Shown: positions 7,947 through 34,046 of the stretch, in pieces | Layout: each line of letters starts with the position of its first letter | How positions within the stretch are numbered: position 1 is the stretch's first letter | Assembly: GCA_018652625.1 (NCBI GenBank) | Contig: JABIBT010000018.1 | Location: forward strand, 4,566-68,565 | Direction: 5' to 3' | Length of the DNA: 64,000 bases | Source of the DNA: Candidatus Woesearchaeota archaeon | GTDB lineage: Archaea > Nanobdellota > Nanobdellia > SCGC-AAA011-G17 > PNOQ01 | The notes under the pieces: generated by a model | What the model was told of the DNA's origin: nothing | What the model saw: the letters and a program-made list of their open reading frames with translations, nothing else | Databases searched by the model: none | Position numbers and translations under genes: made by a program

Positions 7947-8723
7947 ATGAATTCCCTAATAAACAAAATTAAATCAAAGAAATACGCTTCCTTAGGTGAC
8001 GAAATAATAGAGCAAGAGATAAACAACTTCTTAGGAAAAAAACCCAAAGCAAAAGATAAAGAAATAATTAAAGAAGTAAAAACAAGGTTACACAAAATTT
8101 ATGGTTCTTTTCAAGTAAATAAAAAGAAAAAGAGAGATACTTTACTAGAAGAACTAAAAGAAAACCAAAATTCAATAGAATTACATAGAAAGATTTTAGA
8201 AACAAACTTATCAACAAAAGAAAGACTAAAAGCTTACAATACTTTATACTACAGAATTTTTCAAATAACCGGACAACCAAAATCAATTTTAGACGTAGGT
8301 TCAGGAATAAATCCAATATCTTACCCTTTTTTAGAATGCACCCCAAGTTATACTTCTATAGAAATAGACAAAGAGGACGTAGAGTTTGTGAATGAGTATT
8401 TTAAAATAAAAAACATAAAAGGTGAAGCAATATTAAAAGCAATAAATAAAGATACAATAAAAGATTTGCCAAAAACAGATATAACCTTCTTATTCAAAAT
8501 AATTGATCCTCTAGAGGTAAGAAAAGGACACAAGTTCTCAGAAATGCTACTAAAAGGATTAAAATCAAAATATATTGTAGCTTCTTTTTCAACAAAAACA
8601 ATTTCAAATAAAATGATGAAATACCCAAGAAGAGGATGGTTTGAAAAACTATTAACCAGAATAAACCTTAAATTTAAAATAGTAAAAACGCAGAATGAAT
8701 TTTATTATATAATCGAGAAATAA
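7947..8723 (+). CDS. class I SAM-dependent methyltransferase (possibly FmrO/Rmt-like rRNA methyltransferase fold)
   Basis: Glycine-rich SAM-binding motif I 'ILDVGSGINPISYP'. Translationally coupled to the upstream kinase (2-nt gap). Confidence 0.4.
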   Translation: MNSLINKIKSKKYASLGDEIIEQEINNFLGKKPKAKDKEIIKEVKTRLHKIYGSFQVNKKKKRDTLLEELKENQNSIELHRKILETNLSTKERLKAYNTLYYRIFQITGQPKSILDVGSGINPISYPFLECTPSYTSIEIDKEDVEFVNEYFKIKNIKGEAILKAINKDTIKDLPKTDITFLFKIIDPLEVRKGHKFSEMLLKGLKSKYIVASFSTKTISNKMMKYPRRGWFEKLLTRINLKFKIVKTQNEFYYIIEK

Positions 8724-11700: not shown

Positions 11701-14700
11701 GTATCAATAATAAATAATACAATTATATCTGGAACCTCAAATGACAATGGATTGGGACTGAGTGATGTTTCTGTGGGAACTATTGAAAATAATATCATAA
11801 ATGCAACTGCTCACGGGCTATATATTTACACGGGAACAGATAATGTCAATATAACAAACAATAACATTTCTGCAGATCTAGGTAGTGGAAATAATTATTA
11901 TGGTGCCTATTTTACTCAGGAGAGTGTAAATAATAGACTAGAAAACAACACTATAAGCAGTCTTGCTGAAGACGGAATATATATTGATGATTCTCCAAAT
12001 AATATATTTATAGGAAATACTATTACTGCTGGATCTAACGCAGGTTGGACAACAGACGCAGGAATATACTTAACCTACTCAAGTAATAACAATTTCACAG
12101 AAAATATAATAAACAACACAGGGGGACCGGGAGTTTATTCTGCGTATAGTCACAATAATAGTTTTCACGGAAATAAATTCGATTCAAATTATGTTGGAAT
12201 GTACCTTGCATATGGGTCCATGGGGGAAACAGACTTTGCAAGTAACACAATATTAAGTACGTCTCAAGCATACGATTATAGGATATTAGGTAATCTAGCA
12301 GCAAATTCAAATATTTCTTTTTTGAATTGTAGTCTTGATGTAGATGCAGTTTACATGACTGATGATTATAGCTATGTATCTCAATTATGGTATGCAACTA
12401 TCAATGTTTCAAATACAAATGGACAAGTAGAAAATGCAACAGTTTTGGTATATGATGTAAATAGTACACTAGTTTCTACAAAAACAACAAACAGTAAAGG
12501 AATAACAGACAAAGTGCCCTTAAAAGAATTTACATCCGATAGACTAAGCAATTATAATTTAGACAAAACATATTACAATAACCATAGTTTCCAAGCTTCT
12601 GAAGTAGACCATTTTTCAGGATCTAATACTTCAAATATGACGACTAGTAAAATGGTTTATGTCAGATTAGAAGACTGGCCTTTAGTTACAATTCTAACAA
12701 ATTATCCAGAAGTTAAAAGTTATCAAGGGAATAGCCTTTTACAAATAAGAGTAAACGAAACAAGACGTTCTGATTTAATTAATAATACCAATGTATCAAT
12801 AACCTTTGCAAATGGGACTACATTAACTTTTGCAATGGTAAATGGAACGAACGGAGATCCAAATCTATGGGAATATAATTACACAATAAATCTTTCAGAT
12901 GTTGGTGGAACATTCAATATTACTGCAAAAGCCTATAATTCTACAGGATACAATTATATCAATGATACCGACACTGGATTTTATATAGAGCCAAACATAG
13001 TGTGGTTCAAAACTTATAATTTAAGTGATAAAGCTAAATCTTTCTTTGCAGAAAACGAACCATCTAAATTAAAAACTTTAGTACATAATGCTTACGAAAA
13101 TTATCCTCAAGTAGAGGTTAGAGATGCGGAGGGAAGCGTGGTATTAAATAAAACCCCTATGACAAGTGAAGAAGGAACAATATTTAATATTAGCTACATA
13201 ACTAACGGTTCATTAGGTTTTTATAATGTAACAATATATTCTAATGGAACAGACACAGAACAGTTTGAGTATTCATTCTACCGAGGAACAAACTGGCAAA
13301 ATAACTTTACAAATAATGATAGTTCCATTTATGCCTTTTCAAAAGAAATAAATATATCTGAACCAAATATCGGAGAAAGATTCTTTTATCCAGTAGATGC
13401 CAATATAAATTTCACAGAAACAGTAAATTTAGATTCGATAAGAGTTACATTATATAATGGAACAACATATACAGAAATTCCTTCACAAATTTATAATTAT
13501 ACTGCAATAAACAATACGGCAGAAACAGCAAATGTTGTTTGGTTAGCTTCATTAAGTAAGGGAGAGAATAGAACATATCATATTCATTATAATGATGTTA
13601 CTTTAGGAAATGCAACCTACAACACAGACTTAACTACGTATACAACAACAAGTAATTATAGATTTTTTAATACAAGTTATTATAGTATAAGGACCGATTC
13701 CGACGAGGGAGGAGTTATTGATGCTGCCTGGACAAAACAAGGAAATACAGATAATATAGCTGGACAAGACCCTATGCAAAGCTCCCCTTCTATACTTACA
13801 ATAACTTTAGATTCTTATTCCGCACACAAAGATCAAAGTCCAACAATAAGCTTAGAACATTCTGGTCCAGTTTTCAATAAATATACAATTTCTGGATATT
13901 TAAGCTCTTCTGACGGAACTCAAAACACAAATTTACCATTTAACCAAACTTACTGGACCTATGCAAAAAATAATTATTTGATTTATGAAACCAACTTGAA
14001 TTTCTTATCCGCATATAATCTTGAAAACCTAATAAGCCAGTTTGTATCGTACGGGGAAGGATATTTCAATAAATTTTCATGGGGACTTTCCAACGGATCA
14101 TATTATAATTATTCCTTAACTACAGGAAATGGGCCAGATTATACAAATTTAAATATAAGTATGATTTGGTTAGGGGTTTATAATTCAGAGAACAAAACAT
14201 CAATGGCAGATATTTTCTTGAATAGAACAAGTACTACTGAAGAAACCCCGGAAGGATACTTTTATGATCAGGCCTCATTTGAGTTTTACAAAAGATACTT
14301 AATTTCAAGCCCAACAGCAGTAACAAACGGAAGTAATTATACCTCAAAAATAGCAAGAATATTCTGGGATGGGGAAGACAAGTATGAAACCTTGAATGAT
14401 ACCTATTATATCTTACAAAATGATATAACTTATACCACTGGAGGAATAAAATATGGAGATACAACAAAATCATATTTCACACAATATAACCATTCACCTA
14501 CGCTTCCAAATGATAACGAGAGTATTAATTGTTTCTCATACTGGATGGACGAACTGAGATTAAAGGAAGGGTATGTAGAAACAAATGCAACAGGTACAGC
14601 AATCAACCACACCGTGTCAATAACTGGAAATGAAAGTTGGGTTAATTACACAATCCCTGCAGCAGATTTAACACTAAACAGAACATACTGTAAGTTTTTT

Positions 14701-17070
14701 GCTAAAGATATTGGAAATAACATAAATTCAACACCAAGAATATTTTTTAATGTTACAGATGTTTCTCCACCAATAATAGAAAACATAACAAATACTCCAA
14801 ATAGCTCAGATGCTTTGGACCCAGGAGTAATAATAAATGTTACAGCAGACGTTAAAGATAAAATAAATATAGATACTATAGTTTTACAATATCAATATAA
14901 TCATTCTGGAGTGTGGAATGAAACAAATATGGCCATTGTTACAAACAATAGTTACATAGCAAACTTTAGTGCAGCAAATATAGGAAATTATTCTTATAGG
15001 ATTAATGCAACCGATAAAGTAGGAAATAGTAATCTTAGTAGCACAACAAGTGTTACTGTGGACTATGATTTATCCTGGCAAATTTCTCCAGCTTCTTTTG
15101 AAGCAGTTTCAGGACTTATAGGATCTACACTAAATGTATTTAATATTACCGTAAATAATACAGCAGATTTTGAAGCAGATTTCAGTTTCACTTCTACAAG
15201 AGATGGATGGATTTATTATAATAATTCATTAGAAACATACACAATCACACTGGGCCCAAAAAATAGCACAACTTTAGAAATTAATGCAAGTTTACCAGTT
15301 GATATTGGAGAATACCCTTTAACAGTCACAGTTACCCATGGAAACTCAACTGCTGATCCTGCGACGAGAACTGTTTCTGGAGATGTGGTGGCATATCAAG
15401 CAGGACCATATGTATGGACAAGTTTTTCAACTTATAGCGTTTCAGTACTATCTGGAGATTCGAATGTTAACTATACTGTAAGAATTAAGAATTTAGGTAA
15501 TGAAACCGCGGAAAATATAACAAATACCATAACTTTACCGGAGGGGTGGACAACAAGTGAGAACCTAGTTTCAACATTTAGTAGTATAATTGCAAATGCA
15601 TATGAGTATCATAGTATTTTAGTAAATATTCCTTCTAGCGCAGAATCTGAGATTGTAACAATGATAACTACTCCGTTAGCAAATAATACAAATCAATCTC
15701 ACGAAGAAGAATTAGAAATAACAGTTGTAGATCCAACCGTAGCTTCATCTGGATCCGGTGATGGAGGGGGCGGAGGAGGAGGCGGCAGCGGAGGCGGCAG
15801 CGGAGGAGTTCCATTCAACCAAGAAGAGTCTGAAAGATTTTTTAGATCAGAACAAATATTTGAGTTAGTCAGAGGAGAAAATCAAGAATTTATAATTGAG
15901 ATAGAAAATCCATATGAGACGGATGTAATGAAAAATCTAAAACTTAAATTAATGGGATTTGATGAAAACTACTTACATTTCTCTCCAAAAATAATTAGGG
16001 AATTAAATCCTGGAGAAAAAGAAAATATTAGTATAAGGATAACTGCCCCAGCATATTTTGTAAAAGGAGAATATCAACTAGAGTTCAAAATTAATGGAGA
16101 TTTAATAAAAAACACTACAAAAACAATCCCAATAATTTATACTAAACATATTACACTGTATGTTTTTGAGGTTTCAAGATTGGACGCCATTGATTATAGA
16201 AACAACGCAGAAGAACACATTGATGAAATGACTTCAAATGAGTTTAAAACAGAAGAGGCAGAAGGATTATTTCGAGAACTTGGAACAGCATACAACGAAA
16301 CAGAATTCAAACAAGTTGAAGAGCTATATGAACAAATCTATGATCTTTATGTAACTTCAAATGAAGCAAATAAAGGAATAATAGAATTAGAAAATAAGGT
16401 AGAAGAAGCAGAAAATAAAAAAATACTTATAGAAAAAACAAAAAGATTGCTTCACCTAGCAAAATCTTCTTTTGAAAGAGGGGAGTACAAAAGTGCTATA
16501 GACAGGGTAAAGGAAGCAAAGCTAACTCTTGCCTTGGAATATGGTGGAAAATATGTAAAAGAAGCCATTTACTCGATGAAAGAGAATCCAAAAGAAACAA
16601 CAATAGGATTTTCATCTTTCGCATTTTTTGTTATTGGGACTTCAGTCTTCTCGAGATATAGATACTTAAAGAGAAAACTAAAAAAATTGTTGGGAGAAGA
16701 AAATCTTTTAATGGAATTAATGAAAGCAATACAAATAGAAGTATTCGAAAGATCAAAAATGTCTATGAAAGAATATGGCGATGCCATGATGCAGTATGAA
16801 GAAAGATTGAATAAAGTTCTAGAAGATACATTAAAGTTTGAAAATAAGAAAAAGAACTTGATGAAATTTAAATCAAAAGGGAAAAAATTTAGGGAAGAAA
16901 GAGAAAAATTACTTGGACTCATAAAGGAAACTCAAAAAGCATATATCTCGGAAGGAAAATTTGAAACTAGAATTTATGAAAATAAACTAAAGTCTTATTC
17001 AACAAGATTGGCAGATATTGAAGAACAGTTGGCCACAGCAGAAGTTAAAAAAGCATTTAAGAAAAAATAA
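8767..17070 (+). CDS. giant (2767 aa) surface protein with an N-terminal signal-anchor TM, acidic tandem repeats, N-glycosylation-sequon-rich parallel beta-helix repeats, a poly-Gly linker, a C-terminal TM and a cytoplasmic coiled-coil tail
   Basis: Uninterrupted 8.3-kb ORF with a GTG/TTG-type start. TM segments are at aa ~55-78 and at 'IGFSSFAFFVIGTSVF' near aa 2610. 'xNNTF/I..G' repeats recur at ~22-25 aa periodicity, as in right-handed beta-helices. N-x-S/T sequons are very numerous. The C-terminal 150 aa are K/E-rich with a heptad-like pattern. Confidence 0.7.
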   Translation: MGYLHKKRIKDRSYYYTTIREKTGKTKTIYLGVNRRKAVEKEKSLGITHKKSSHFISVFLVIFAILSLGLIGFSFTGFVVEDVTISDITEVDSPKELDLEFEEVVEEETEEIILEEEVETNETEIVEEKPEITEEINETIEPEINQTEVNQTEEINETEIVEEKPEITEEINETIEINETIAINQTEIILNTTNQTVINQTLEQNKNITELYYEVIVNQQVKWEKAVELEKEATSLEVKIPKKANNITITKISEQKKETKEPYVEAKETNIITGNFFRNLITGFAIFEEKSDEQTIKIKGPLKGAIVEYYMPGPKTEEKQISQWKKQIIVSSEEHYENILTYTNISNFPEEAINLYHLTEKGRVKTEFISNDKDEDGLIDYIEWITPHLSNETYEIEITILNVQSYPSVGGNWTVYFNTTGQSDLTITGINDTYFGIDLELIEIKCGDKQLPYEVGENSITVKNYTCENTGSETSKVLTPGKHHLEFNFGGQIAHAHNLATISTCQTLSVANEYYILDSDIPNDDGTCFTIGATNITLDCEGHTIDGDGDASGYGVIINNANYDNLTITNCTIQQFARNVYVGASSDDIRLVNSNFLEGYYDGVLTYSVQNMFIENNTFSGLNEYGAYFWHSSSTYGNNWTINNNTFTGGTTSSDYGVQIGYLDNSTITNNSFIGGTGSTYGYGGAYQYGHNVIIKNNTFEGNSVDRDRGLYLQYADNFTITNNTFSSSINDYASLEMYSTTNSRVFNNSMTSPASYGLTISYYSSNNQIENNNVTSRNGVYFATYSTDNNLTSNSIISSTLYGVYMNSYNTGNRIVNNNIVGQTYTVYATAYSNNNDYINNTMVSNANYVVYMNDHAGNNLFYNNDMTSSGTYAIRAYLASGGNNFTKNNMTSPNNALRLESDCNDNIVDSNIINSTANIGIYIVTGSSENNLIKNNIVYGGTTAFQDSSVNTNLRLVNNSFFATNGWGAVIVAGTNVSIINNTIISGTSNDNGLGLSDVSVGTIENNIINATAHGLYIYTGTDNVNITNNNISADLGSGNNYYGAYFTQESVNNRLENNTISSLAEDGIYIDDSPNNIFIGNTITAGSNAGWTTDAGIYLTYSSNNNFTENIINNTGGPGVYSAYSHNNSFHGNKFDSNYVGMYLAYGSMGETDFASNTILSTSQAYDYRILGNLAANSNISFLNCSLDVDAVYMTDDYSYVSQLWYATINVSNTNGQVENATVLVYDVNSTLVSTKTTNSKGITDKVPLKEFTSDRLSNYNLDKTYYNNHSFQASEVDHFSGSNTSNMTTSKMVYVRLEDWPLVTILTNYPEVKSYQGNSLLQIRVNETRRSDLINNTNVSITFANGTTLTFAMVNGTNGDPNLWEYNYTINLSDVGGTFNITAKAYNSTGYNYINDTDTGFYIEPNIVWFKTYNLSDKAKSFFAENEPSKLKTLVHNAYENYPQVEVRDAEGSVVLNKTPMTSEEGTIFNISYITNGSLGFYNVTIYSNGTDTEQFEYSFYRGTNWQNNFTNNDSSIYAFSKEINISEPNIGERFFYPVDANINFTETVNLDSIRVTLYNGTTYTEIPSQIYNYTAINNTAETANVVWLASLSKGENRTYHIHYNDVTLGNATYNTDLTTYTTTSNYRFFNTSYYSIRTDSDEGGVIDAAWTKQGNTDNIAGQDPMQSSPSILTITLDSYSAHKDQSPTISLEHSGPVFNKYTISGYLSSSDGTQNTNLPFNQTYWTYAKNNYLIYETNLNFLSAYNLENLISQFVSYGEGYFNKFSWGLSNGSYYNYSLTTGNGPDYTNLNISMIWLGVYNSENKTSMADIFLNRTSTTEETPEGYFYDQASFEFYKRYLISSPTAVTNGSNYTSKIARIFWDGEDKYETLNDTYYILQNDITYTTGGIKYGDTTKSYFTQYNHSPTLPNDNESINCFSYWMDELRLKEGYVETNATGTAINHTVSITGNESWVNYTIPAADLTLNRTYCKFFAKDIGNNINSTPRIFFNVTDVSPPIIENITNTPNSSDALDPGVIINVTADVKDKINIDTIVLQYQYNHSGVWNETNMAIVTNNSYIANFSAANIGNYSYRINATDKVGNSNLSSTTSVTVDYDLSWQISPASFEAVSGLIGSTLNVFNITVNNTADFEADFSFTSTRDGWIYYNNSLETYTITLGPKNSTTLEINASLPVDIGEYPLTVTVTHGNSTADPATRTVSGDVVAYQAGPYVWTSFSTYSVSVLSGDSNVNYTVRIKNLGNETAENITNTITLPEGWTTSENLVSTFSSIIANAYEYHSILVNIPSSAESEIVTMITTPLANNTNQSHEEELEITVVDPTVASSGSGDGGGGGGGGSGGGSGGVPFNQEESERFFRSEQIFELVRGENQEFIIEIENPYETDVMKNLKLKLMGFDENYLHFSPKIIRELNPGEKENISIRITAPAYFVKGEYQLEFKINGDLIKNTTKTIPIIYTKHITLYVFEVSRLDAIDYRNNAEEHIDEMTSNEFKTEEAEGLFRELGTAYNETEFKQVEELYEQIYDLYVTSNEANKGIIELENKVEEAENKKILIEKTKRLLHLAKSSFERGEYKSAIDRVKEAKLTLALEYGGKYVKEAIYSMKENPKETTIGFSSFAFFVIGTSVFSRYRYLKRKLKKLLGEENLLMELMKAIQIEVFERSKMSMKEYGDAMMQYEERLNKVLEDTLKFENKKKNLMKFKSKGKKFREEREKLLGLIKETQKAYISEGKFETRIYENKLKSYSTRLADIEEQLATAEVKKAFKKK
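9133..9294 (+). repeat. in-frame tandem repeat (two ~57-nt near-identical units ~105 nt apart) encoding 'ETEIVEEKPEITEEINETIE'
   Basis: Near-identical sequence at 9133-9189 and 9238-9294 ('a-c-r-g-a-r-a-t-w-gttgaagaaaaaccagaaataacagaagaaataaa-y-gaaacaatagaa'). Confidence 0.7.
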
Positions 17071-17099: not shown

Positions 17100-18173
17100 A
17101 TGAAAAAGGTATATATGAATAAAAAAGGATTTCTCGGATTGCCCTTTGGATCGGGTAAGAAAAAGGAAGAAAAGAAAGTTGAGAATAAAGAGAATTCTGA
17201 AAAATCGGATATAGAAATTGAAAAGAAAACAGCAAAACCAAAAGAATCCGAAGAAACTATAAAAGATTACAAGGCAGGATTGGGGGAAGATCCCACGATA
17301 GAAACACTCACTGAAGAGATGAAGATTGCAAAAAGAATAGCTAAAGAATATACAGAAGAAGAAGGAGTATCAAAAAAACAAGAGGAATCAGATGAATCAT
17401 CTTCAAAAGAAGTACCAACCTATAAAACAGGTATAGCTGGATTTGATGTTTTATTGGGCGGGGGAGGAATTCCGTGCTCTACAAGTGTATTGGTGGAAGG
17501 GGGCCCGGGGTCTGGAAAGACTATTTTTTGCTTACATGTGGCACAGTCTTTTTGTGAAAAGGGAAAAAAAGTGCTATATATGAGTTTTGAGGAACCAGAA
17601 GAAAGATTAATACAACATATGGAATCATTCGGAATGCCCGCAAAAAAATACGTAGAAAATGGAACATTAATAGTTAGGAGATTCAACGCTTTAGATATTG
17701 CAAGATCGGTAGAAGCCCTATTATCGGAAGCTAAAAAAGAACTGTTAATAGAGGTACAACCTATCTTAATTCCACAAGATATAGAACCAGATTTGGTATT
17801 AATTGACTCTCTTACATCTATTGCTTCAGCATTTTCTGGAGAAGACAATAGATTCAGAATTTATATGGAACAAATGTTTAGATATTTAGAGAATAATAAA
17901 ATGAGCTCCCTATTGATTAGAGAAGTTGCAAATCCCGGACATATAGGGGAGGGACATTCTGCATCTGATGAAGCAACAAGCTTTCTATCAGACGGGATTA
18001 TTGTTTTTTATAATGTGGTTCTCAATACGGGAAAAAGAACAAGGGCTATTGAGATATTAAAACTAAGAGGGCAACCTTTCGACAGAAGAATTGTAGAGGC
18101 AGAAATAATCAACAAAAAAGGGTTGATGGTATATCCCAAAAGAACACTAAAGGGAAAATATACACTAACTTAA
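17100..18173 (+). CDS. KaiC/RadA-like single-domain RecA-superfamily ATPase with a disordered K/E-rich N-terminus
   Basis: 'TGIAGFDVLLGGGGIPCSTSVLVEGGPGSGKT' (Walker A in a KaiC-type context), 'LVLIDSL' (Walker B region) and 'RAIEILKLRGQPFDRR', the KaiC-family signature. Confidence 0.65.
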   Translation: MKKVYMNKKGFLGLPFGSGKKKEEKKVENKENSEKSDIEIEKKTAKPKESEETIKDYKAGLGEDPTIETLTEEMKIAKRIAKEYTEEEGVSKKQEESDESSSKEVPTYKTGIAGFDVLLGGGGIPCSTSVLVEGGPGSGKTIFCLHVAQSFCEKGKKVLYMSFEEPEERLIQHMESFGMPAKKYVENGTLIVRRFNALDIARSVEALLSEAKKELLIEVQPILIPQDIEPDLVLIDSLTSIASAFSGEDNRFRIYMEQMFRYLENNKMSSLLIREVANPGHIGEGHSASDEATSFLSDGIIVFYNVVLNTGKRTRAIEILKLRGQPFDRRIVEAEIINKKGLMVYPKRTLKGKYTLT

Positions 18174-18180
18174 TTAAAAA

Positions 18181-19182
18181 ATGAAAAAAATATATTTATT
18201 TCTTATAGTTGCTCTTATTTTAGTACCATTTGTACAATCTGAAGAGGTCTCAGATATAGAAATAGAGCTACAACTTAAAATAAAAGAAGTAGAAATCATA
18301 GTTTTTGAACTTAGAGATGAAGGATTCAGTATTCAAAGAGTAAACGATACACTCGAAGCAGCAAAAGGAATTTTTGAAGTACAATCTCAAAGAAAAAGTA
18401 GGCAAAAAGATTTTACATTAGTTGACAAATACCTAGACGAAATTTTTGAATTAAAGAAGCAAGCATATGTAACAAGAGATGAGATTAATTATGTTTACGA
18501 ATTTTATAACGATACTAAAAAAAATAAACCGGATATGAACCTATCAGAAGTTGACAAAATTTTAGAAGAGATGCAATTTGAATTTGATAGTGAAAGATAT
18601 GATAGAGCATATGATTTATCAAAAAAGGCATACTCAAGAATAATTGACATAGAGGGGAGCTATACAGCAGTAAATTTAGCGTATCAAGCTACAGCAAGGA
18701 CTCTAAAAAATTTCCTTATAGATAATTGGTTATTATTACTTTCTATTTTAATTGGAGGTACATTCTTATATTTTTTATTTAGAAATAGAATAATTTTCTT
18801 TAAAACCAAACTAAGAATAAGATATTTAGAACGACAAAGAGGAGTATTAGAACAATTAATTAAGGAAACACAAAGCGGATATTTTGAAAAATCAACAATT
18901 GCAGAGTCTACATATAGGATCCGGACAAAAAAATTCTCAGATATGACTAGAGATATAAATAGACAACTACCTTTATTGAAAGAGGAATTGGCTAAAAGAA
19001 AGAAAGGAGAAAAGCCATTTGAGGAGAAAGTTAAAGATCGAAGTAAGAATAATTCAAAGAAAAAAAAGAAAAGAAAAGGGAGTTTCTCTATTTTTAAGAA
19101 GAAAAAACAAAATAAAATAATTAAGAAAAAAGTTGTCAAAAAGAAAGTTACGAAGAAAAAAGTAACAAAAAAGAAGAAATAA
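18181..19182 (+). CDS. bitopic membrane protein with a signal peptide, coiled-coil ectodomain, one TM helix and a poly-lysine cytoplasmic tail
   Basis: N-terminal 'IYLFLIVALILVPFVQS', an internal TM 'WLLLLSILIGGTFLYFLF', and a C-terminal KKK-rich tail. Separated by only 7 nt from the KaiC-like gene. Confidence 0.45.
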   Translation: MKKIYLFLIVALILVPFVQSEEVSDIEIELQLKIKEVEIIVFELRDEGFSIQRVNDTLEAAKGIFEVQSQRKSRQKDFTLVDKYLDEIFELKKQAYVTRDEINYVYEFYNDTKKNKPDMNLSEVDKILEEMQFEFDSERYDRAYDLSKKAYSRIIDIEGSYTAVNLAYQATARTLKNFLIDNWLLLLSILIGGTFLYFLFRNRIIFFKTKLRIRYLERQRGVLEQLIKETQSGYFEKSTIAESTYRIRTKKFSDMTRDINRQLPLLKEELAKRKKGEKPFEEKVKDRSKNNSKKKKKRKGSFSIFKKKKQNKIIKKKVVKKKVTKKKVTKKKK

Positions 19183-21514: not shown

Positions 21515-21996
21515 TGGATAGATTTCACAAGGCTTTTGAAATGGCTGTAAAAGCTCATGAAAATCAGATAAGAGAATTAACAGGATCTCCAGTAATAGTT
21601 CATCCTTTAGCAGTTATGGGAATTCTAAGAAATTTTGGAATAAAAGATGAAGATATTTTAATTGCTGCAGTATTACATGATGTTGTTGAAGATTCTTCTA
21701 TAACTTTGGAAGAAGTAAAAAAAGAATTTGGAGACAGAGTAGCAGATTTAGTTGACCAAGTTTCAAAAAAACAAGATAAAACCTATCCAATAAGAGATGA
21801 ATCCGGAGTAGTATTAAAAATGGCAGACCTAATTCACAATGGGCTTTGCATGCCAAAAGACAATGAAAAGAAAATTAATAATTATATAAGGAGAGTAGAC
21901 CTAATAATTAAAAATTACCCCCAATTAATGAATTCTTACCCAGAAATATTCAAATACCTAAAAAAAATTCTGAAAAAAGTCAAAGCCTTGAGATAG
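21514..21996 (+). CDS. HD-domain phosphohydrolase
   Basis: The 'HPLAV' ... 'VLHDVVED' His/Asp pattern of the HD superfamily. The start overlaps the tldD stop. Confidence 0.55.
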   Translation: MDRFHKAFEMAVKAHENQIRELTGSPVIVHPLAVMGILRNFGIKDEDILIAAVLHDVVEDSSITLEEVKKEFGDRVADLVDQVSKKQDKTYPIRDESGVVLKMADLIHNGLCMPKDNEKKINNYIRRVDLIIKNYPQLMNSYPEIFKYLKKILKKVKALR

Positions 21997-22438
21997 AACT
22001 TCCTCTTTTTATTTCTTCTATAGATCTACCACAAGCAGGGCAAACCCTTGGCCACATCTTTATTGGATTATATTTAAAACCAAAACCACATTTATCACAA
22101 ATATATTTTATTCTATCATCTTGTACTTTAGGTTTTACAACTTCTCTTTTTTTAAATTCGCCACTTTTTAAGGCCTCACGTTCATCATAAATAACAATAG
22201 AACTTGGTTTTTCCTCAACTACCTCTTTTTCCTCAACAGATTTATTCGATTCTGCCTTTTTTCCTATTTTTTTAATACCTACACTATGAAAACAATTGCT
22301 GCAAACCATAACTCCCAAATCATCATCTATCTTAAAATCTTTAGCTGGAGCTTTATTCCCACACTTCTTACATTTAGCATATAATTCCTCTTTTGGCTTT
22401 GTATCAAAATAACCTTCATCAAAACTAATCTTTTCCAT
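21980..22438 (-). CDS. double zinc-ribbon protein
   Basis: Two CxxC...CxxC pairs ('CKKCGNK...CSNC', 'CDKCGF...CPACG') separated by an acidic/lysine-rich linker. Confidence 0.4.
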   Translation of the reverse strand: MEKISFDEGYFDTKPKEELYAKCKKCGNKAPAKDFKIDDDLGVMVCSNCFHSVGIKKIGKKAESNKSVEEKEVVEEKPSSIVIYDEREALKSGEFKKREVVKPKVQDDRIKYICDKCGFGFKYNPIKMWPRVCPACGRSIEEIKRGSSISRL

Positions 22439-22573
22439 CTTTTTGGGAGAATACCGTGACTTAAAAAGATTATACTAAGAAAAAACTATATATTGATTAA
22501 CAATATACTACTAACTAATAGTTACAAATAGAAAGATTTATAAACCGGAAATTGTGATTTTTTATTAGATAAA

Positions 22574-23620
22574 ATGGGATTAGAGAGAAAACTAGCGGAA
22601 GTAGAGGTCTTAGCTAGTGATTTAGCTAAAAAAGCTTATTCTGCAGACTATGGAGAAGATAGTTATTTAGGGAGCAGATTAGAAGAATTAAATACAGATG
22701 TTAGAAACTTAGAAATAGCATACCATAGAGCAAAAAAATTACTAAAAAAGAAAGATAAAGCACTTGCTGCAGGAGCATTAGGAGATTTAGTGAAAAGGCA
22801 AAAGAACCTCGCAGATAATTTAAATAGGACTATGCAAATAATTTATTCTGGAACTTCTTTTTATTTTGATGAAGACATAGACTTGAGAAAATTAGAGGAA
22901 AATACAAAATCAGCCCCCCTAATAAATAATAAGTGGAGCATGTATTATTATTTTATGAAATTTCATAGTCCAAAAAATACATTATCAAGAACAAGAAATA
23001 ATGATGGACATGGAAATACACTAAAAACGATTAGAAAAACGGAAAAAGAAGATAGAATAAGTTATGGGATCAAGGAAAGATATCATTTGTTAAGTCGTAC
23101 AGGTGTAGTTGGTGCAACAGATTGGATGCAATCTGAACTAGAAAAATATCTAATTGGAGCAAAAACAATATTGGAAACAATCTCAGAAGATAATTCACAA
23201 AAATTGGCTCCTAACAGAAGTAGACAAAGTGTAACAATAAAAAGAGCTAGAAATTTTTCAAACAGACATAGGGGTGGAATTATAGCCGCAACAATTGGAG
23301 CACTATTGGCAACTGGTTTTGTTGGAGGTACTGCCTATGAAAAGATACAACTGGCAAATGCAGAAAAACAACGAGCAGAACTAAAAGCAGAAAAAGAAGC
23401 AAGCGGAAGGGGCACAGCAGAGCATATGATTGAATTAAATTCTGGAATTAGAACTAGGTTTGATAATTGGGAGATATTTGGGAATCAAGAACAGTATGAA
23501 ATGATACTAAATAAAAGAATAAAATCCCATTTAGAATTGTTTGGAACCAACGGTCTAAATAAAGATAATTTTTATGTAAAGAAATATTTGGAAGAACATC
23601 CAGTTGAGGTGGGGGAATAA
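22574..23620 (+). CDS. uncharacterised bitopic membrane protein, paralog A
   Basis: Shares the N-terminus 'MGLE(R/K)KLAEV', an 'ADNL..MQ..Y' block and a 'KRHRG + TM helix' block with the downstream gene. No known domain recognised. Confidence 0.5.
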   Translation: MGLERKLAEVEVLASDLAKKAYSADYGEDSYLGSRLEELNTDVRNLEIAYHRAKKLLKKKDKALAAGALGDLVKRQKNLADNLNRTMQIIYSGTSFYFDEDIDLRKLEENTKSAPLINNKWSMYYYFMKFHSPKNTLSRTRNNDGHGNTLKTIRKTEKEDRISYGIKERYHLLSRTGVVGATDWMQSELEKYLIGAKTILETISEDNSQKLAPNRSRQSVTIKRARNFSNRHRGGIIAATIGALLATGFVGGTAYEKIQLANAEKQRAELKAEKEASGRGTAEHMIELNSGIRTRFDNWEIFGNQEQYEMILNKRIKSHLELFGTNGLNKDNFYVKKYLEEHPVEVGE

Positions 23621-24678
23621 TGGGTTTAGAAAAAAGATTAGCGGAAGTGGATTTACTAATAGAAGATCTTAGACACAGAGCTAAAGATACCTCCACAATA
23701 GACTATCTTGATGGCTTGTCTGGTAAAATATCTGTATTTCATAATTCATATAGATCTGCTAAAAGGTCGGTTGATTGGGGGGGAAATAATTCAGCTAATT
23801 TAAACGTTGGACAATTTGCCCTAACTGCAAAAAACATAGCAGATAATCTTAGTGGTATGATGCAAACTCTTTATGGGGCACACCCAGTTAAGTTAACAAA
23901 CTTAGAGAGAAATCTAGAAAACGCTCCTAAATCGGAAGAGGGAGAGAGTCTAAAAGATATATTCTTAAAATATCACGATGGAGGAAAAACCTCTCCATTA
24001 ATTCTAGCAAGACATGCATATGGACATGCAGAAGAGAATAAGATTTTACATTTTCCAGGAAATGCTCCTGCACTTATAGGAGACATCTCAGCATCTAGAT
24101 GGTTGAGCACAAATGTTGAAAAATATCTCAGTTTAGTAAAAGATTGTTTAGAAGTAATTTCAGAACAAGATTCAATAAACTTTGATGAAACCAGACTACC
24201 TGCAAATGTAGTTAGAAGAGCTATGAAGAATTATGCTAAGAGGCACAGAGGAACATTGGTAGCCCTTTTATCAGGAGCATCTATAGCCCTTGGTTCTTTA
24301 GGAACCATGTTTGCTAATAATATAGATAAAATGAATGAGTTTGAAGTATTGAAAACCTCCTATGAAGAAGTATACGGTCATGAGAATGCTAAAGGTCTGG
24401 AAGAGGCTGCAAATAAAGTATATGCTTTTGTAGATAGTTGCAATTCTGACAGTATGGGGGAACTATATTGTAGGGGAATGGCCCCTGGAACATTTGATGA
24501 TAGGATTTGGGATGGTGAATTTATAGAATTTAAAAAAAGAGTAGAATCTGGAGAATTATTGGGAGAAGGATTCCCAATGGGATTAGCAGAAGCAATGTTC
24601 ATGAAGGCAATAGAAGAGAAAGGATATGAACCAGAGTACAATATAACTTGGCCAAACAAAAACGAAGGAGACGAATAA
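23620..24678 (+). CDS. uncharacterised bitopic membrane protein, paralog B
   Basis: See paralog A. The start overlaps the stop of the upstream paralog (ATGA-type coupling). Confidence 0.5.
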   Translation: MGLEKRLAEVDLLIEDLRHRAKDTSTIDYLDGLSGKISVFHNSYRSAKRSVDWGGNNSANLNVGQFALTAKNIADNLSGMMQTLYGAHPVKLTNLERNLENAPKSEEGESLKDIFLKYHDGGKTSPLILARHAYGHAEENKILHFPGNAPALIGDISASRWLSTNVEKYLSLVKDCLEVISEQDSINFDETRLPANVVRRAMKNYAKRHRGTLVALLSGASIALGSLGTMFANNIDKMNEFEVLKTSYEEVYGHENAKGLEEAANKVYAFVDSCNSDSMGELYCRGMAPGTFDDRIWDGEFIEFKKRVESGELLGEGFPMGLAEAMFMKAIEEKGYEPEYNITWPNKNEGDE

Positions 24679-24960
24679 ATGGCATTAAAATTAGAGGATA
24701 TACAAGCAGCTAATATGTATGCAGCTGATATTAAAGGATTGGTTGGTGTTAGATTGAAATGGACAGAAATACTAAAATTAGCACACTTACAAAAAGAGCA
24801 TAACATGGAAGCAATGTTTATGGTTCTTAAAGACCATTACGGAATTGATGCATTTGCTCTAAAAAATTCAAACGGACAATCACTTTTGGGAGATCCTGCA
24901 CTTATTAAATATCATCAAAGATATTCTCCAATGTGGAGACAAGAAACAGAATTAGTTTAA
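24679..24960 (+). CDS. small hypothetical protein (93 aa) coupled to the paralog pair
   Basis: Starts immediately after the stop of paralog B. No motif recognised. Confidence 0.35.
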   Translation: MALKLEDIQAANMYAADIKGLVGVRLKWTEILKLAHLQKEHNMEAMFMVLKDHYGIDAFALKNSNGQSLLGDPALIKYHQRYSPMWRQETELV

Positions 24961-26837: not shown

Positions 26838-27032
26838 TTAACAAGGATGGCAATGTTTGAAAAACAATACTTTTAGACCCAATATTACAAATACGATTCC
26901 AAAAAATTGTTCTATGCTCAAATAACTGAACCAAACTCCAAGACCTAGTAAAATTGCTATTATTCCAAAGATTAATTTATGATTTTTACTAGGGCAACAT
27001 GTGTTTTTAGTTTCTACTTTTTTTGCTGGCAT
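26838..27032 (-). CDS. small 2-TM membrane protein with Cys/His-rich termini
   Basis: 'TCCPS' at the N-terminus and 'KHCHPC' at the C-terminus. Paralogous to 27048..27236 ('W..L..EQ.F..'). Confidence 0.35.
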   Translation of the reverse strand: MPAKKVETKNTCCPSKNHKLIFGIIAILLGLGVWFSYLSIEQFFGIVFVILGLKVLFFKHCHPC

Positions 27033-27047
27033 ATAGTTTCACCTCCT

Positions 27048-27236
27048 TTATGATTTTATAAATCCTATAATTAGTTTAAAAGCACCAACTACAAACAAAA
27101 GCACTGCAAAAACTTGTTCTAGTGTCCATGCTCCACTCCATAATAAATATCCTAAAAATAGAGATATTAATCCACTAAGTATAAACAAAGCTCTTCCACC
27201 ATGATGTGGATAAATTCTTTGATTCTTTTTTACCAT
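27048..27236 (-). CDS. small 2-TM membrane protein, paralog of 26838..27032
   Basis: Shared 'W..L.(I/L)EQ(F/V)F' core. Confidence 0.35.
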   Translation of the reverse strand: MVKKNQRIYPHHGGRALFILSGLISLFLGYLLWSGAWTLEQVFAVLLFVVGAFKLIIGFIKS

Positions 27237-30459: not shown

Positions 30460-31851
30460 TTATAAATATTTCCTAATCAACTCAGAAACAACCCTGCCTT
30501 CAACTTTTCCCCTATATTTATTCATAACAATTCCCATCAAAGCACCAACTGATAATTTTTTATTCTTCTCCACAATTGCTTTAATATCTTTTTCTAAATC
30601 TTTAAAATCAATTTGTTTATACTTGGACATGTCAATTTTCTTCTCTTGAGCAATATCAGTTAAAACTTCAAATGCACTTTCTTTGTTTAAATTCCCATTA
30701 TCCAAATTCTCTAAAACTAATATAAAATCATCTTTTGAGAAATAATAATCTAAATTAAATCTTTTTTTGATATCTTTAGGCATTTCAACTAAAACAGAAG
30801 CAATTAGATTCTTGTCTAAACTATATTCAAATTCATCTAAAAAAATTCCATCCTTAACTAAAATTCTTGCTAAATCCGGATTTACACCTTGTTTCTCTAA
30901 CTTCAAAACTTTTTCATCTAATAATTCAGGAAGTTCAATACTTTTCAATAATTCTTTAGTAATCAAGATGGGTTTAACGTCAGTTTCTGGATACATTCTA
31001 GCAGCTCCAGGCATCGGTCTCAAAAATGATGTAGAAAAATCAGATTCAGCTTTCCTAACTTCTTTTTTAACATTTCCCTTACTTTGTCTTTTAACTTCAT
31101 TCTCAATAATCTTAATCATACTTCTTAAATCTTGAAAACCTTTTATTTCAACTCTATTTCCATTTTTAATAGAAACATTAACATCTTGCCTGATAGTTCC
31201 TAAACCTCTTTTAACTTTGGCAGTACTACGTAAAATCATTCCTAATTTCTCTGCTGTTTCTTTTGCATGCTCAGGATCTTTAATATCTGGATCCGTAGCA
31301 ATCTCAATTAAAGGAATTCCCAATCTATCTAATCTAAAAGTAACTGAGTTTTTATCATCTTTAATTCTTCTTGCTGCATCTTCTTCAACAGCAACAGAAG
31401 CAATTCCAACTTTTCCTTTTGAAGTTCCTAAATAACCACCATAACCAACTAAAGCCGTCCTCTGAAAACCAGATGTATTAGAACCATCAACAACAACTTT
31501 CCTCATAACTTGGATTTCATCAACTAACTTACATTTTAACAATAAACAAACCTGTAAAACAATCTCTAAAGCGTCTTCATTCATATCGTGTGGCGGCTCT
31601 TCATCATATTCAACAGAACAATTACTATCCTTATATCCTTGATAAATAAATTCTTTATCTTTACTAGTTTCATACTCTGCAGCAACATCTTTCTTTCCAG
31701 ATTCTCCTTCCGAAGATCTTAATTTTCTTTTAATTAAAATATCTGGCTTTTCATCTCTAAGAATAGAAGGACAAGAACAAAATAGTTTATTAGTTTCTAA
31801 TTGCTGATGTATCTCCAAACCAGCCTTAAACTTAAGTTTCTTATAATCCAT
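30460..31851 (-). CDS. gatE: Glu-tRNA(Gln) amidotransferase subunit E (archaeal)
   Basis: 'GLEIHQQLETNKLFCSCPS', 'DEEPPH', 'VVDGSNTSGFQRTALV', 'VEEDAARRI', 'FRLDRLGIPLIEI', and a C-terminal YqeY/GatB-like tail 'GALMGIVMNKYRGKVEGRVV'. These are GatE-specific blocks. Confidence 0.8.
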   Translation of the reverse strand: MDYKKLKFKAGLEIHQQLETNKLFCSCPSILRDEKPDILIKRKLRSSEGESGKKDVAAEYETSKDKEFIYQGYKDSNCSVEYDEEPPHDMNEDALEIVLQVCLLLKCKLVDEIQVMRKVVVDGSNTSGFQRTALVGYGGYLGTSKGKVGIASVAVEEDAARRIKDDKNSVTFRLDRLGIPLIEIATDPDIKDPEHAKETAEKLGMILRSTAKVKRGLGTIRQDVNVSIKNGNRVEIKGFQDLRSMIKIIENEVKRQSKGNVKKEVRKAESDFSTSFLRPMPGAARMYPETDVKPILITKELLKSIELPELLDEKVLKLEKQGVNPDLARILVKDGIFLDEFEYSLDKNLIASVLVEMPKDIKKRFNLDYYFSKDDFILVLENLDNGNLNKESAFEVLTDIAQEKKIDMSKYKQIDFKDLEKDIKAIVEKNKKLSVGALMGIVMNKYRGKVEGRVVSELIRKYL

Positions 31852-31893
31852 TAATTAAAAATATATTAAGTAACTTTTAAAACTAACTGTTCT

Positions 31894-32499
31894 CTAAAAA
31901 AAAGAACTAAAAAAAGGTTGTTTTATTTTATCTACAGCTTCTACACCTACTTCCCAGGACATTGCCTCTTCATAGAAAACGGCTTCAGAAGACATAGGAT
32001 CTCCCCAATCTTCATTCATATGAATCCAATCATTTCCACCATAGCAATAGAACTTTGTAATCTCTCCTCCATGTCCCCACCAATCAAAAATATATACTCT
32101 AAATTTTAAGGTATCTTGATTCCAACATTCAGGAAAGTCAGACATACTATAATTTACATACGCCGGGGTTCCATAATCTGGATGAGATCCACCTTTCAAT
32201 TGCCATTTACTAGAGCTCAAAGCACCAGTGGGTTTTTCATAATCTAAATAAAGAGTCATTTCTGTTATCAATGGTCCGGGGGGGTAAGAATCTGGATCCA
32301 TGATTGAAAGTCTAATATTTGTATCCCAATCTCCATCCGTCATATTGTAACAATAACTCTCATTTCCAAAAGGATAAGTCTCACAATTTGAAAGATTTGC
32401 ATCTTCTTGATATATTGATTCAGTATTTCCTAAAGAATAAACAAAACTACTCATAGAAACAAACAGAACCAATAAAAAAATAATTGATTTATATTTCAT
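31894..32499 (-). CDS. secreted hypothetical protein
   Basis: Signal peptide 'IIFLLVLFVSMSSFVYS'. Trp/Asp-rich mature part. Confidence 0.4.
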   Translation of the reverse strand: MKYKSIIFLLVLFVSMSSFVYSLGNTESIYQEDANLSNCETYPFGNESYCYNMTDGDWDTNIRLSIMDPDSYPPGPLITEMTLYLDYEKPTGALSSSKWQLKGGSHPDYGTPAYVNYSMSDFPECWNQDTLKFRVYIFDWWGHGGEITKFYCYGGNDWIHMNEDWGDPMSSEAVFYEEAMSWEVGVEAVDKIKQPFFSSFF

Positions 32500-32561
32500 C
32501 TTAAATAGGGGAGTGTACAGCTACTTAAAAAACTAACTAAAAAAAGAGACAAGAGGAATGA

Positions 32562-32981
32562 TTACCTCTCATAAGGACCATTTCCAGAAGCAAATCCTCT
32601 TCCAGATGAACCTTTCTGTCTCATTTTATTACCAAAGCCAGTTCCATCTTTTGGACCTTCTCCATTATGTAGACCTAACTCTGCTCTTAGCCTAGTCGCA
32701 GTTTCATAATCTCCATTTTCTGCTGCTTCATGAGCCAATACAAATGTTTCAAAATTTTCTTCTGAGACAACATCTAAAACTCTAGGATTTCTCCCACTTT
32801 CAGACATTAGTTCTATCCATGCATCATAATCTAAGGAATCAAATACTTCCTCCATTTCTGCATGTCTGTCTTCAGAATAGTTTGGACCTTCTTTTGTATA
32901 ATCTCCTTGGTATGCGCTAACAAATCCTGTCATTGCAATTAAACCAATCAAAAACACAACCGCAATATTTGTTTTTTTCAT
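32562..32981 (-). CDS. secreted hypothetical protein
   Basis: Signal peptide 'IAVVFLIGLIAMTGFVSA'. Acidic helical mature region and a Gly-rich tail. Confidence 0.4.
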   Translation of the reverse strand: MKKTNIAVVFLIGLIAMTGFVSAYQGDYTKEGPNYSEDRHAEMEEVFDSLDYDAWIELMSESGRNPRVLDVVSEENFETFVLAHEAAENGDYETATRLRAELGLHNGEGPKDGTGFGNKMRQKGSSGRGFASGNGPYER

Positions 32982-33103
32982 TTTTCTTTTACCTCCTTAA
33001 TTTTTATTTAGTATGATATAAATTCTTTATAAGTCGGGTGGACCTAAAGTCCATGCTATTTAAAAACGCTTAAATAACCATTTTATACACTAAGATTTGT
33101 AAA

Positions 33104-33781
33104 ATGCAACAGCAATTAATGGGCAGAATGGTCCAAATGGGATTAGGGGCAGAGTTAATCTACGCATTCATAATTATAATAAGTAGTTTAATGATTTATT
33201 TTGGTACAAAAGAATTGTACGAACTAACTAAATACAAAGGAATAAAATATTTCCGAGAAGCATTTCTGTTATTTGCAATCGCATTCTTCTTTAGATCTTT
33301 TATAAAATCCATAATGATTCTTTTCGGGTTAAGTAGGCCCCATGATTTTCAATTGTTAGGAATAGTTTCTTTATTCATATTTTTGTATACAATCACTCTT
33401 GCTATGTTTTATTTACTCTATAGCATAATGTGGAAAAAATGGAGAAAATCTCCAAAAATAATTTACTTATTTCATATTTTGGCAATCTTAATAGCTATTT
33501 TGAGTTTAATCACAGGGAATATCACGATAATTTTGTTGGTAAATATATTGCTCTTAATCTTGATTTTAAGTATAACTTACATCGCTCATAAAAATCCAAG
33601 AAAGAAAGGACAGAGTATACACTTAATTTATGTTTTATTATCTCTCTTTTTAATTTTAAATGTTATAGATATACTAATACCAAATTTCTTACAGTTATAT
33701 CAATTAATGATATATTTGCTTTCCATAGGAATATTTTTGTTAATTTTTTACAAAGTACTTAAAAAATCTGGTTCGGACTAA
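33104..33781 (+). CDS. polytopic membrane protein
   Basis: About six hydrophobic helices. Confidence 0.45.
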   Translation: MQQQLMGRMVQMGLGAELIYAFIIIISSLMIYFGTKELYELTKYKGIKYFREAFLLFAIAFFFRSFIKSIMILFGLSRPHDFQLLGIVSLFIFLYTITLAMFYLLYSIMWKKWRKSPKIIYLFHILAILIAILSLITGNITIILLVNILLLILILSITYIAHKNPRKKGQSIHLIYVLLSLFLILNVIDILIPNFLQLYQLMIYLLSIGIFLLIFYKVLKKSGSD

Positions 33782-33782
33782 A

Positions 33783-34046
33783 ATGAAAAAAAGAAGTAAA
33801 TTTGAAATCATGAAAGATATTTTACAAACAGTTCAGAATAATCCAGATATAAAAACAACACCATTGTTAAGAAAATCTAACTTATCTACTTTAAGATTCA
33901 AACAATATTATGAAGATTTATTAAAAAAAGAACTAATAAAAGAAACCGAAAATAAAGGAAAGTTTGTTAATTTAACAGAAAAAGGTTTTAGATTCTTAGA
34001 TAAATATAAAACAATTTTAAACTTTATTGACGAGTTTGATCTGTGA
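33783..34046 (+). CDS. small winged-helix DNA-binding protein
   Basis: 87 aa with a helix-turn-helix-like centre. Coupled to the upstream membrane gene (1-nt gap). Confidence 0.35.
   Translation: MKKRSKFEIMKDILQTVQNNPDIKTTPLLRKSNLSTLRFKQYYEDLLKKELIKETENKGKFVNLTEKGFRFLDKYKTILNFIDEFDL

Follow-up and report, generated by a model that had tools for sequence, protein, structure and literature searches.

A rare family of predicted single-pass membrane proteins from DPANN archaea with an invariant R-x4-H motif of HEPN type

Introduction

What kind of protein is encoded by two related, overlapping genes for predicted membrane proteins in a woesearchaeal genome, and do the two genes belong together? 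This question is raised by a stretch of 64,000 nucleotides (nt) of DNA from Candidatus Woesearchaeota archaeon (assembly GCA_018652625.1, contig JABIBT010000018.1, positions 4,566 to 68,565 of the forward strand), which has a G+C content of about 31% and is called the window in the following. Three consecutive open reading frames (ORFs) of the window, here named genes A, B, and C, had been picked out in a sequence-only reading as a tandem pair of membrane protein genes followed by a coupled small ORF. DPANN archaea, to which the organism belongs, have tiny genomes in which a large fraction of the genes has no known function, and they live attached to hosts.

Here we report that A and B are divergent members of a family of bitopic membrane proteins that is rare, undescribed, and, so far, restricted to DPANN archaea. 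All aligned members share a polar site that includes an R-x4-H motif, or in one case R-x5-H, of the type that defines HEPN domains. A tentative reading of this site and of the predicted topology is that the proteins could be membrane-anchored ribonucleases (RNases) that face the cytoplasm.

Results

A, B, and C are genuine genes

The coordinates of the three ORFs, 22574-24960 in the window, were confirmed as first noted, and the ORFs encode proteins of 348, 352, and 93 amino acids (aa). Genes A and B meet in the sequence TAATG, in which the stop and start codons overlap by 1 nt, and genes B and C meet in TAAATG, without any spacer. Shine-Dalgarno-like sequences, GAGGTG and GGAG, are located immediately upstream of the starts of B and C, respectively. 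At its other end, C overlaps the 3'-end of a convergent XPD helicase gene with its last 9 nt.

In the NCBI records, the exact B protein is assigned to Candidatus Woesearchaeota archaeon, and the order A-B-C was present on all 24 contigs read that carry it. The ratio of nonsynonymous to synonymous substitution rates (dN/dS) was determined in comparison with a sister genome, L019, the metagenome-assembled genome of a GTDB representative of the Woesearchaeota. It was 0.18 for B as well as for C and ranged from 0.07 to 0.20 for the neighboring genes; the C protein is 82% identical to its counterpart in the sister genome. Because the gene order recurs on 24 independent contigs and the dN/dS values are like those of the neighbors, A, B, and C are genuine genes under ordinary purifying selection.

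The proteins A and B have three stretches in common, namely MGLE(R/K)(K/R)LAEV at residue 1, KN[LI]ADNL...MQ..Y, and (N/K)RHRG just before a hydrophobic helix. Their alignment by BLASTP covered 256 aa with 30% identity (E=3e-24). The three ORFs, their two junctions, the shared motifs, and the degree of identity are thus as described in the sequence-only reading. The similarity ends after the transmembrane (TM) helix, and no similarity was detectable between the C-terminal domains. Paralogy of the two proteins, as proposed in that reading, therefore holds up to and including the TM helix, but the C-terminal domains are unrelated.

A and B belong to a rare family that is restricted to DPANN archaea

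Word-indexed searches brought up no more than six relatives for A and three for B. An exhaustive profile search over 1.84 billion representative proteins yielded 55 clusters, of which 40 had E<=1e-30. Without one spurious match to a repeat protein, the family comprises about 54 clusters. The spurious match, P0056, has a length of 1745 aa and contains about 30 near-identical repeats of 57 residues; it was matched with E=2e-7 via 20 short stretches and looks both spurious and eukaryote-like. Nearly all family clusters contain proteins of 335-450 aa that match from residue 1 onward. A third homologue search, with a 46-sequence profile, accounted for three proteins, and pattern scans of metagenomes and genomes for five loci each. 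The conservation, motif, and charge statistics given below are based on 46 aligned members and the neighborhood statistics on about 11 lineages.

Every member with a source name is from Woesearchaeota or Pacearchaeota. The members without a source name are found in contexts that resemble small archaeal genomes, with genes for the RuBisCO large subunit, NFACT-R, and aminoacyl-tRNA synthetases. Searches of IMG/VR and of phage and plasmid collections gave no matches to the family. No family model from Pfam, NCBIfam, PHROGs, or PADLOC matched A, B, or C, none matched the consensus of the family or one of its 46 aligned members, and a literature search found no paper that describes the A/B family. 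The two proteins are uncharacterized, as had been supposed.

One Pacearchaeota member, P0006, is split into ORFs of 244 aa and 119 aa (L009 8001-9088). A related sample contains this gene in one piece (L028 381-1574), and a natural split gene was therefore rejected in favor of a frameshift or an assembly variant.

A polar cluster with an R-x4-H motif is invariant in the family

Six residues are identical in all 46 aligned members: K77, Q88, Y91, R141, H146, and Y192 (numbering of A). N78 (43 of 46), D81 (aspartate or glutamate in 44 of 46), P115, and H131 are nearly invariant. In 45 members, the invariant arginine and histidine form the motif R-x4-H, and the remaining member has R-x5-H. Directly after the arginine, 29 members have asparagine, 11 aspartate, 5 histidine, and 1 glycine. 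This pattern matches the definition of HEPN domains, Rx4-6H with mostly N, D, or H directly after the arginine (PMC3710099). In some HEPN families, a conserved histidine is present in an insert (Anantharaman et al. 2013, PMC3710099), and H131 parallels this residue. No recognizable catalytic motif had been seen in the sequence-only reading; the family alignment revealed one, R-[N/D/H]-x3-H.

Structures of both proteins were modeled with AF2, and the models are confident for the N-terminal domain. There, the predicted local distance difference test score (pLDDT) was 70-92 by block for the model of A, which was based on 9 sequences. For the model of B, based on 46 sequences, it was about 88-97 over most of residues 11-190 and above 90 at the motif. 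In the models, an N-terminal helix and a pair of long helices are followed by an insert of some 40 residues (40-44), a short helix that bears the arginine, a loop, and a final long helix. This layout, like the motif, agrees with the description of the HEPN RNase domain by Anantharaman et al. (2013). R141 lies within helix 136-145 of A and H146 is the first residue after it; likewise, R131 lies within helix 126-135 of B, directly followed by H136. The position of the motif was judged from this predicted secondary structure and not from three-dimensional packing. Helix 2 contributes an acidic residue, D81 in A and D75 in B, as is often seen in HEPN domains, but its flank reads K-x3-D in place of the typical E-x3-[KR].

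When the model of A was compared with the PDB using Foldseek, the HEPN toxins 8yuf (probability 0.92, target TM-score 0.60), 8xdj, and 8xeh were retrieved. The three matches cover probabilities of 0.63-0.92 and target TM-scores of 0.51-0.61 at E-values of about 0.4-1.1, and designed four-helix bundles score alike. HEPN toxins were the only natural proteins among the high-probability compact matches of A.

The conserved domain is predicted to be cytoplasmic, and the C-terminal domain is exchanged

The hydrophobic segment of the family is rich in glycine, alanine, and serine (41% small residues), and 31 of the 46 members contain a GxxxG motif in it. The net charge of the 15 residues before the segment is +3.9 on average and that of the 15 residues after it +0.3, and 42 of the 46 members are more positive before the segment. 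For A, the best 19-residue window has a Kyte-Doolittle value of 1.76, and the net charge is +5 before and 0 after the helix; the N-terminal domain (N-domain) as a whole is basic, with an isoelectric point (pI) of 9.45. An N-terminal signal peptide is absent, and the conserved charged motif begins at residues 1-3. In one member, P0021, the conserved start, LEK.L..YLAEIEVL, is preceded by two extra TM helices that are part of an N-terminal extension. Since the number of added helices is even, the conserved domain would stay in the cytoplasm in this protein also. With this bias in charge and no signal peptide, the N-domain is predicted by the positive-inside rule to be cytoplasmic and the C-terminal domain (C-domain) to be outside. 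The N-domain had been proposed to be extracellular, and the signal peptide analysis, the charge bias, and the hairpin of P0021 all point the opposite way.

Comparisons between members gave different results for the two domains. The N-domain of A is 65.5% identical to that of P0002 (E=1e-107), and the C-domains of the two proteins lack any similarity. Conversely, the identity between A and P0029 is 29% for the N-domains but reaches 51% for the C-domains (E=8e-28). Clustering of the sequences after the TM helix resulted in a majority class of 29 members, which includes A and has the signature 'GIR..DNWE', and several small classes. The class of B is common only to P0008 and P0009. By these comparisons, the C-domain clearly behaves as a module that is swapped between lineages. 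The constant part of the proteins is predicted to be a cytoplasmic helical bundle of about 210-240 aa with the Gly/Ala-rich TM helix, and the variable part a helical C-domain of 70-290 aa on the outer face.

The tandem arrangement of A and B is not a family property

A profile scan of all fetched DNA detected one copy of the gene per locus, except in the window and its identical contig. In a tree of N-domains, A groups with P0002-P0005 (N-domain identity of up to 67%) and B with P0008 and P0009, and the two clades are far apart. The sister genome L019 and the metagenome contig L012 have the HD-domain gene, the zinc-ribbon gene, a B-type gene, the 93-aa ORF, and the XPD helicase gene, but no A. 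A recent tandem duplication was therefore rejected: A and B are from distant clades, their C-domains are unrelated, and the sister genome lacks A.

Up to the ATG, the intergenic DNA in front of A hardly differs from that in front of B in the sister genome. Thus, A is placed precisely between the putative promoter of B and B itself. The first 30 nt or so of A and B are alike because both encode the conserved N-terminal motif. The position of A is consistent with an insertion of A, or with its loss in the sister lineage, by recombination across the conserved 5'-ends. In the closest relatives of A, the gene adjoins GatB, in a block with ornithine/arginine decarboxylase, PmbA, and a PD-(D/E)XK nuclease. 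The same GatB block is found 3-10 kb downstream in the window, where an ORF of 201 aa (31894-32499, minus strand), the N-terminus of which is hydrophobic, fills the slot beside GatB. The duplicated, coupled pair had been taken to suggest a heteromeric sensor or transport-accessory complex. A heteromer of A and B is plausible; however, the pair is no general feature of the family: the other lineages examined have a single copy, and the sister genome lacks A.

Two further observations were made on the GatB block. The order PD-(D/E)XK nuclease - PmbA - ... - GatB - ... - ornithine/arginine decarboxylase is common to window positions 30460-35016 and to L001 and L004. In the genomes of the A relatives, the A-type gene and a 110-aa ORF are located immediately upstream of GatB.

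The small downstream ORFs belong to two unrelated types

Homologues of the 93-aa protein C, for which Pfam, NCBIfam, PHROGs, and PADLOC hold no matching family, were found only beside B and the sister orthologue of B. A different small ORF of 104-110 aa follows P0002-P0004, and hhalign detected no relationship between the two types (probability 1.3%). A coupled small ORF is absent from the loci of P0005, P0029, P0055, and P0023. Downstream of P0009 there is a gene for a multi-TM protein, and downstream of P0018 an unrelated ORF of 123 aa. In total, a small ORF of one or the other of two unrelated families is tightly coupled in five of the roughly 11 lineages; in two lineages an ORF follows loosely, and four have none. 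The 93-aa ORF, which had been noted to follow B at zero spacing, is specific for one lineage, and the relatives of A have the unrelated type instead. A conserved three-gene system was therefore rejected, as the small ORFs are of two unrelated families and often absent.

The type of the small ORF tracks the class of the C-domain and not the clade of the N-domain, as seen for A, P0002-P0005, and P0029. This co-variation does not fit the predicted topology: the small proteins lack a signal peptide, and the C-domain is predicted to be outside.

Features of the locus and its surroundings

The features of the locus are compiled in Table 1. No Rfam family matches the A-B-C region.

Table 1. Positions of the genes A, B, and C and of their sequence features in the window
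Feature	Positions	Strand	Basis
Intergenic region upstream of A, putative promoter, with TATA-like TTTATAAA at 22537-22544	22439-22573	+	Sequence reading and comparison with sister genome L019
Gene A, 348 aa, member of the A clade: N-domain aa 1 to ~231, Gly/Ala-rich TM helix aa ~233-256, C-domain aa ~257-348	22574-23620	+	
A, polar face of helix 2, K77-N78-L-A-D81-N82 ... Q88 .. Y91	22802-22846	+	Family alignment; model helix 62-91
A, HEPN-type R-x4-H motif, R141-N-N-D-G-H146	22994-23011	+	Alignment; model helix 136-145
A, predicted TM helix GGIIAATIGALLATGFVGGTAY, with RARNFSNRHRG just before	23270-23341	+	Hydropathy and charge
Gene B, 352 aa, member of the B clade: N-domain aa 1 to ~208, TM helix aa ~210-231, acidic C-domain (pI 4.4)	23620-24678	+	
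B, polar block K71-N72-I-A-D75-N76 ... Q82 .. Y85	23830-23874	+	Alignment; model helix 56-85
B, HEPN-type R-x4-H motif, R131-H-A-Y-G-H136	24010-24027	+	Alignment; model helix 126-135
B, predicted TM helix, approximately TLVALLSGASIALGSLGTMFAN, with KNYAKRHRG just before	24247-24312	+	Hydropathy and charge
Gene C, 93 aa, soluble, without TM helix or signal peptide, coupled to B	24679-24960	+	

The neighboring genes are housekeeping genes and encode a KaiC-like ATPase, a metallophosphoesterase, TldD/PmbA, an HD-domain protein, a zinc-ribbon protein, the XPD helicase, a low-molecular-weight phosphatase, and a PD-(D/E)XK nuclease. The zinc-ribbon protein has 152 aa and two zinc ribbons of the type CxxC...CxxC. 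Its gene (21980-22438, minus strand) is divergent from A, has the same position in the sister genome, and overlaps the HD-domain gene by 17 nt with its 3'-end.

Several other genes of the window deserve mention. A giant ORF of 2767 aa (8767-17070, plus strand) contains right-handed beta-helix/NosD repeats and an NPCBM-associated domain and probably encodes a surface protein. It is directly followed by the gene of the KaiC-like ATPase (17100-18173), and this in turn by an ORF of 333 aa (18181-19182), the N-terminus and an internal stretch of which are hydrophobic and the tail of which is rich in lysine. Two adjacent small ORFs of 64 and 62 aa (26838-27032 and 27048-27236, both on the minus strand) are hydrophobic, paralogous by eye, and without a Pfam match; the sister genome has ORFs of similar size and sequence at this place (L019, 7228-7413 and 7425-7610). 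Lastly, a homologue of the FmrO-family ribosomal RNA methyltransferases (E=6e-19) is encoded at 7947-8723 (plus strand), beside a small P-loop kinase-like gene. The FmrO family is associated with aminoglycoside resistance.

Discussion

A membrane-anchored, HEPN-like RNase as the favored reading

From the motif and the topology we infer HEPN homology, RNase activity, and dimerization. On this basis, A and B would be membrane-anchored, HEPN-like RNases that face the cytoplasm and carry an exchangeable outer domain, and they might form a heterodimer with one another; we favor this reading with slightly less than even confidence. The invariant polar cluster, which consists of the lysine and the acidic residue of helix 2, the histidine of the insert, R-[N/D/H]-x3-H, and the tyrosine of the last helix, would represent the active-site signature of the metal-independent HEPN RNases. 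The proteins would dimerize, and the juxtaposed R-x4-H motifs would cut RNA on the cytoplasmic side of the membrane, with the outer domain as a module for input or specificity. Canonical HEPN proteins act as face-to-face dimers, and TM helices of the GxxxG type promote helix association. Because the canonical domain needs such a dimer and GxxxG helices associate, the family would be expected to act as homodimers. A and B, produced from one transcript by coupled translation, could form heterodimers beside or instead of homodimers, and the 93-aa protein might be an accessory or regulator specific for the B lineage.

Several results weigh against an assignment to HEPN. Foldseek searches of the PDB and BFVD gave no match at E<=0.001, and all E-values were above 0.09. 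With the better model, that of B, the HEPN entry 1ufb was reached only at rank 16 and with a probability of 0.23, and the HEPN-type entries of BFVD were at ranks 38-39. Pfam scans of the 46 members and the consensus revealed no significant HEPN match, the only trace being RnlA_toxin with E=0.058 in a single member, and NCBIfam and PADLOC scans of the members gave no HEPN match either. A search of the PDB sequences with the N-domain profile found nothing. Alignments with hhalign against RnlA and against a DPANN protein with a Pfam HEPN domain were negative, although these were comparisons of single sequences with low power. Thus, neither the searches with hidden Markov models nor those with Foldseek connected the proteins significantly to any characterized family, a check that the sequence-only reading had named. 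In addition, the helix that bears the motif is short (10 residues), and the genomic context is one of housekeeping genes and not a defense island. HEPN genes of DPANN archaea have been described to reside in housekeeping contexts (PMC6393860), as is the case for A and B.

The same results can be read as evidence that the N-domain is a new helical bundle unrelated to HEPN, in which R-x4-H arose by convergence or chance. In this case, a ligand, a metal, or a partner protein would be bound by the polar cluster, and the proteins would be membrane scaffolds or signaling receptors of DPANN archaea without nuclease activity. Absence of a significant link from any profile or fold search to HEPN, or to anything else, fits this explanation, and so do the fold matches, which are generic four-helix bundles including de novo designs, the stable housekeeping contexts, and the ordinary purifying selection. 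However, two of the six invariant residues form the exact HEPN motif, and 45 of 46 members have N, D, or H after the arginine. Furthermore, the motif is at the end of a helix, as is typical of HEPN, and the preceding long helix has an acidic residue. A coincidence in these four respects is possible, but it is not the simplest reading, and we regard a non-HEPN bundle as somewhat unlikely.

If the proteins are HEPN-like RNases, the small downstream ORFs bring to mind a toxin-antitoxin system of the RnlA-RnlB type, with a membrane-bound toxin and a coupled small antitoxin or immunity partner. The swapping of C-domains and small ORFs would then be a cassette exchange, as in polymorphic toxins. The layout mirrors that of rnlA (357 aa) and the overlapping rnlB (123 aa), and the C-domain is clearly swapped between members. 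Moreover, the 104-110-aa ORF accompanies the C-domain class of P0002-P0004 in three of three lineages and the 93-aa ORF the class of B in two of three, and no small ORF is coupled to the examined members of the majority class (A, P0005, P0029, and P0023). One member, P0018, is located within 3 kb of an MNT/HEPN pair and a second MNT gene (L030, 1-862 and 6792-7062), the sole neighborhood of this kind that was seen. Against this stand the lineages without a coupled small ORF and the syntenic housekeeping locus, in which B and C have neighbor-like dN/dS values of about 0.18 and a patchiness of the mobile type is lacking. PADLOC, phage, plasmid, and IMG/VR searches yielded no matches. Small proteins without a signal peptide cannot reach the C-domain with which they co-vary if the N-domain is inside and the C-domain outside, and the invariant residues are in the N-domain and not in the variable C-domain. 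For a polymorphic toxin, a secretion signal or a known trafficking domain is missing in the family. A toxin-antitoxin system is therefore improbable in our view.

By far the least probable explanation, and one that was rejected because fold searches, a Pfam scan, and a larger profile gave no support, is that A and B form a binary alpha-pore-forming toxin of the ClyA superfamily (like XaxAB, YaxAB, or Mak), the Gly/Ala-rich head of which would perforate host membranes. The length, the hydrophobic segment at about two-thirds of it, and the tandem paralogues do resemble such toxins, a 9-sequence profile gave a weak collinear match to MakA over the hydrophobic head and the next helix (E=0.02), and the best NCBIfam match among the 46 members was alpha-xenorhabdolysin subunit A (E=8.5e-4, one member). 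Yet the signal was lost with the N-domain profile and with a 28-sequence profile of the majority class, which matched only ApoE and designed helical proteins, none of the 46 members matched HlyE or HBL of Pfam, and ClyA, SmhB, and HblL1 ranked 43-47 in Foldseek for A (probability <0.1) and outside the top 50 for B. Toxins of the ClyA type are typically long helical rods, whereas the helices predicted here have 20-30 residues; the family is single-copy in all other lineages examined, and we know of no counterpart of the invariant N-domain polar cluster in these toxins.

A possible route from the cell surface to RNA

The reading of A and B as membrane-anchored, HEPN-like RNases can be extended to a more far-reaching and rather unlikely proposal. 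The family might comprise transmembrane signaling RNases of DPANN archaea, analogous to Ire1, with an N-terminal HEPN-like nuclease, a dimerizing Gly-zipper TM helix, and an exchangeable sensor, and the A/B heterodimer might integrate two external cues, for example of contact with the host cell. If this were true, the family would be a candidate route from events at the surface, such as host contact, virus attack, or envelope stress, to the cleavage of RNA. It would also add archaea, with an architecture of their own that is new, to the range of membrane-tethered HEPN RNases, which are represented by Ire1 and C6orf70 in eukaryotes and have been predicted for bacteria. Should the link to HEPN prove wrong, the family still defines a new protein domain with an obvious invariant site.

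Comparison with known systems

Three bacterial groups of membrane HEPN proteins have been described (Anantharaman et al. 2013, Biol Direct 8:15): DUF4145 proteins with an N-terminal WP-TM helix, Abi2/Swt1-type proteins with the order helical domain-TM-HEPN, and proteins with an N-terminal HEPN domain followed by two TM helices and a zinc ribbon. They share with A and B a predicted cytoplasmic Rx4-6H domain that is tethered to the membrane and possibly combined with an outer or accessory sensor, and in the third group HEPN is at the N-terminus, as in the family of A and B. In contrast, the proteins studied here consist of the N-domain, one Gly-rich TM helix, and a swappable helical C-domain, are archaeal, and have no Pfam match to those families.

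Ire1 and RNase L, with their KEN domain, and C6orf70 (ERMARD) correspond to our reading of A and B in that a single-pass protein has a cytoplasmic HEPN RNase that is activated by dimerization or oligomerization from the other side. However, these proteins are eukaryotic, Ire1 has a kinase between the TM helix and KEN and the reverse order sensor-TM-RNase, and sequence similarity to A and B was not detected. Csx28, an accessory protein of type VI-B2 CRISPR systems, likewise combines one TM helix with a four-helix bundle that contains Rx4-6H and is active as an oligomer at the membrane. Its TM helix is N-terminal, it has no outer domain, it forms an octameric face-to-back pore, it is linked to Cas13b, and its motif is divergent, whereas the family of A and B has no CRISPR association and a strictly invariant arginine and histidine.

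RnlA-RnlB and LsoA-LsoB resemble the locus in that the gene of a HEPN RNase of about 350 aa overlaps the gene of a small partner downstream. RnlA, however, is soluble, mobile, and patchy in its distribution, hhalign detected no similarity, and the small ORFs are not universal in the family described here. The ClyA superfamily (XaxAB, YaxAB, MakABE, Nhe, and Hbl) has in common with A and B tandem paralogues of about 350 aa, a single Gly/Ala-rich segment, and weak matches; the matches were not reproducible, and the family of A and B differs in its fold, in the length of its helices, in its invariant polar cluster, and in being single-copy as a rule.

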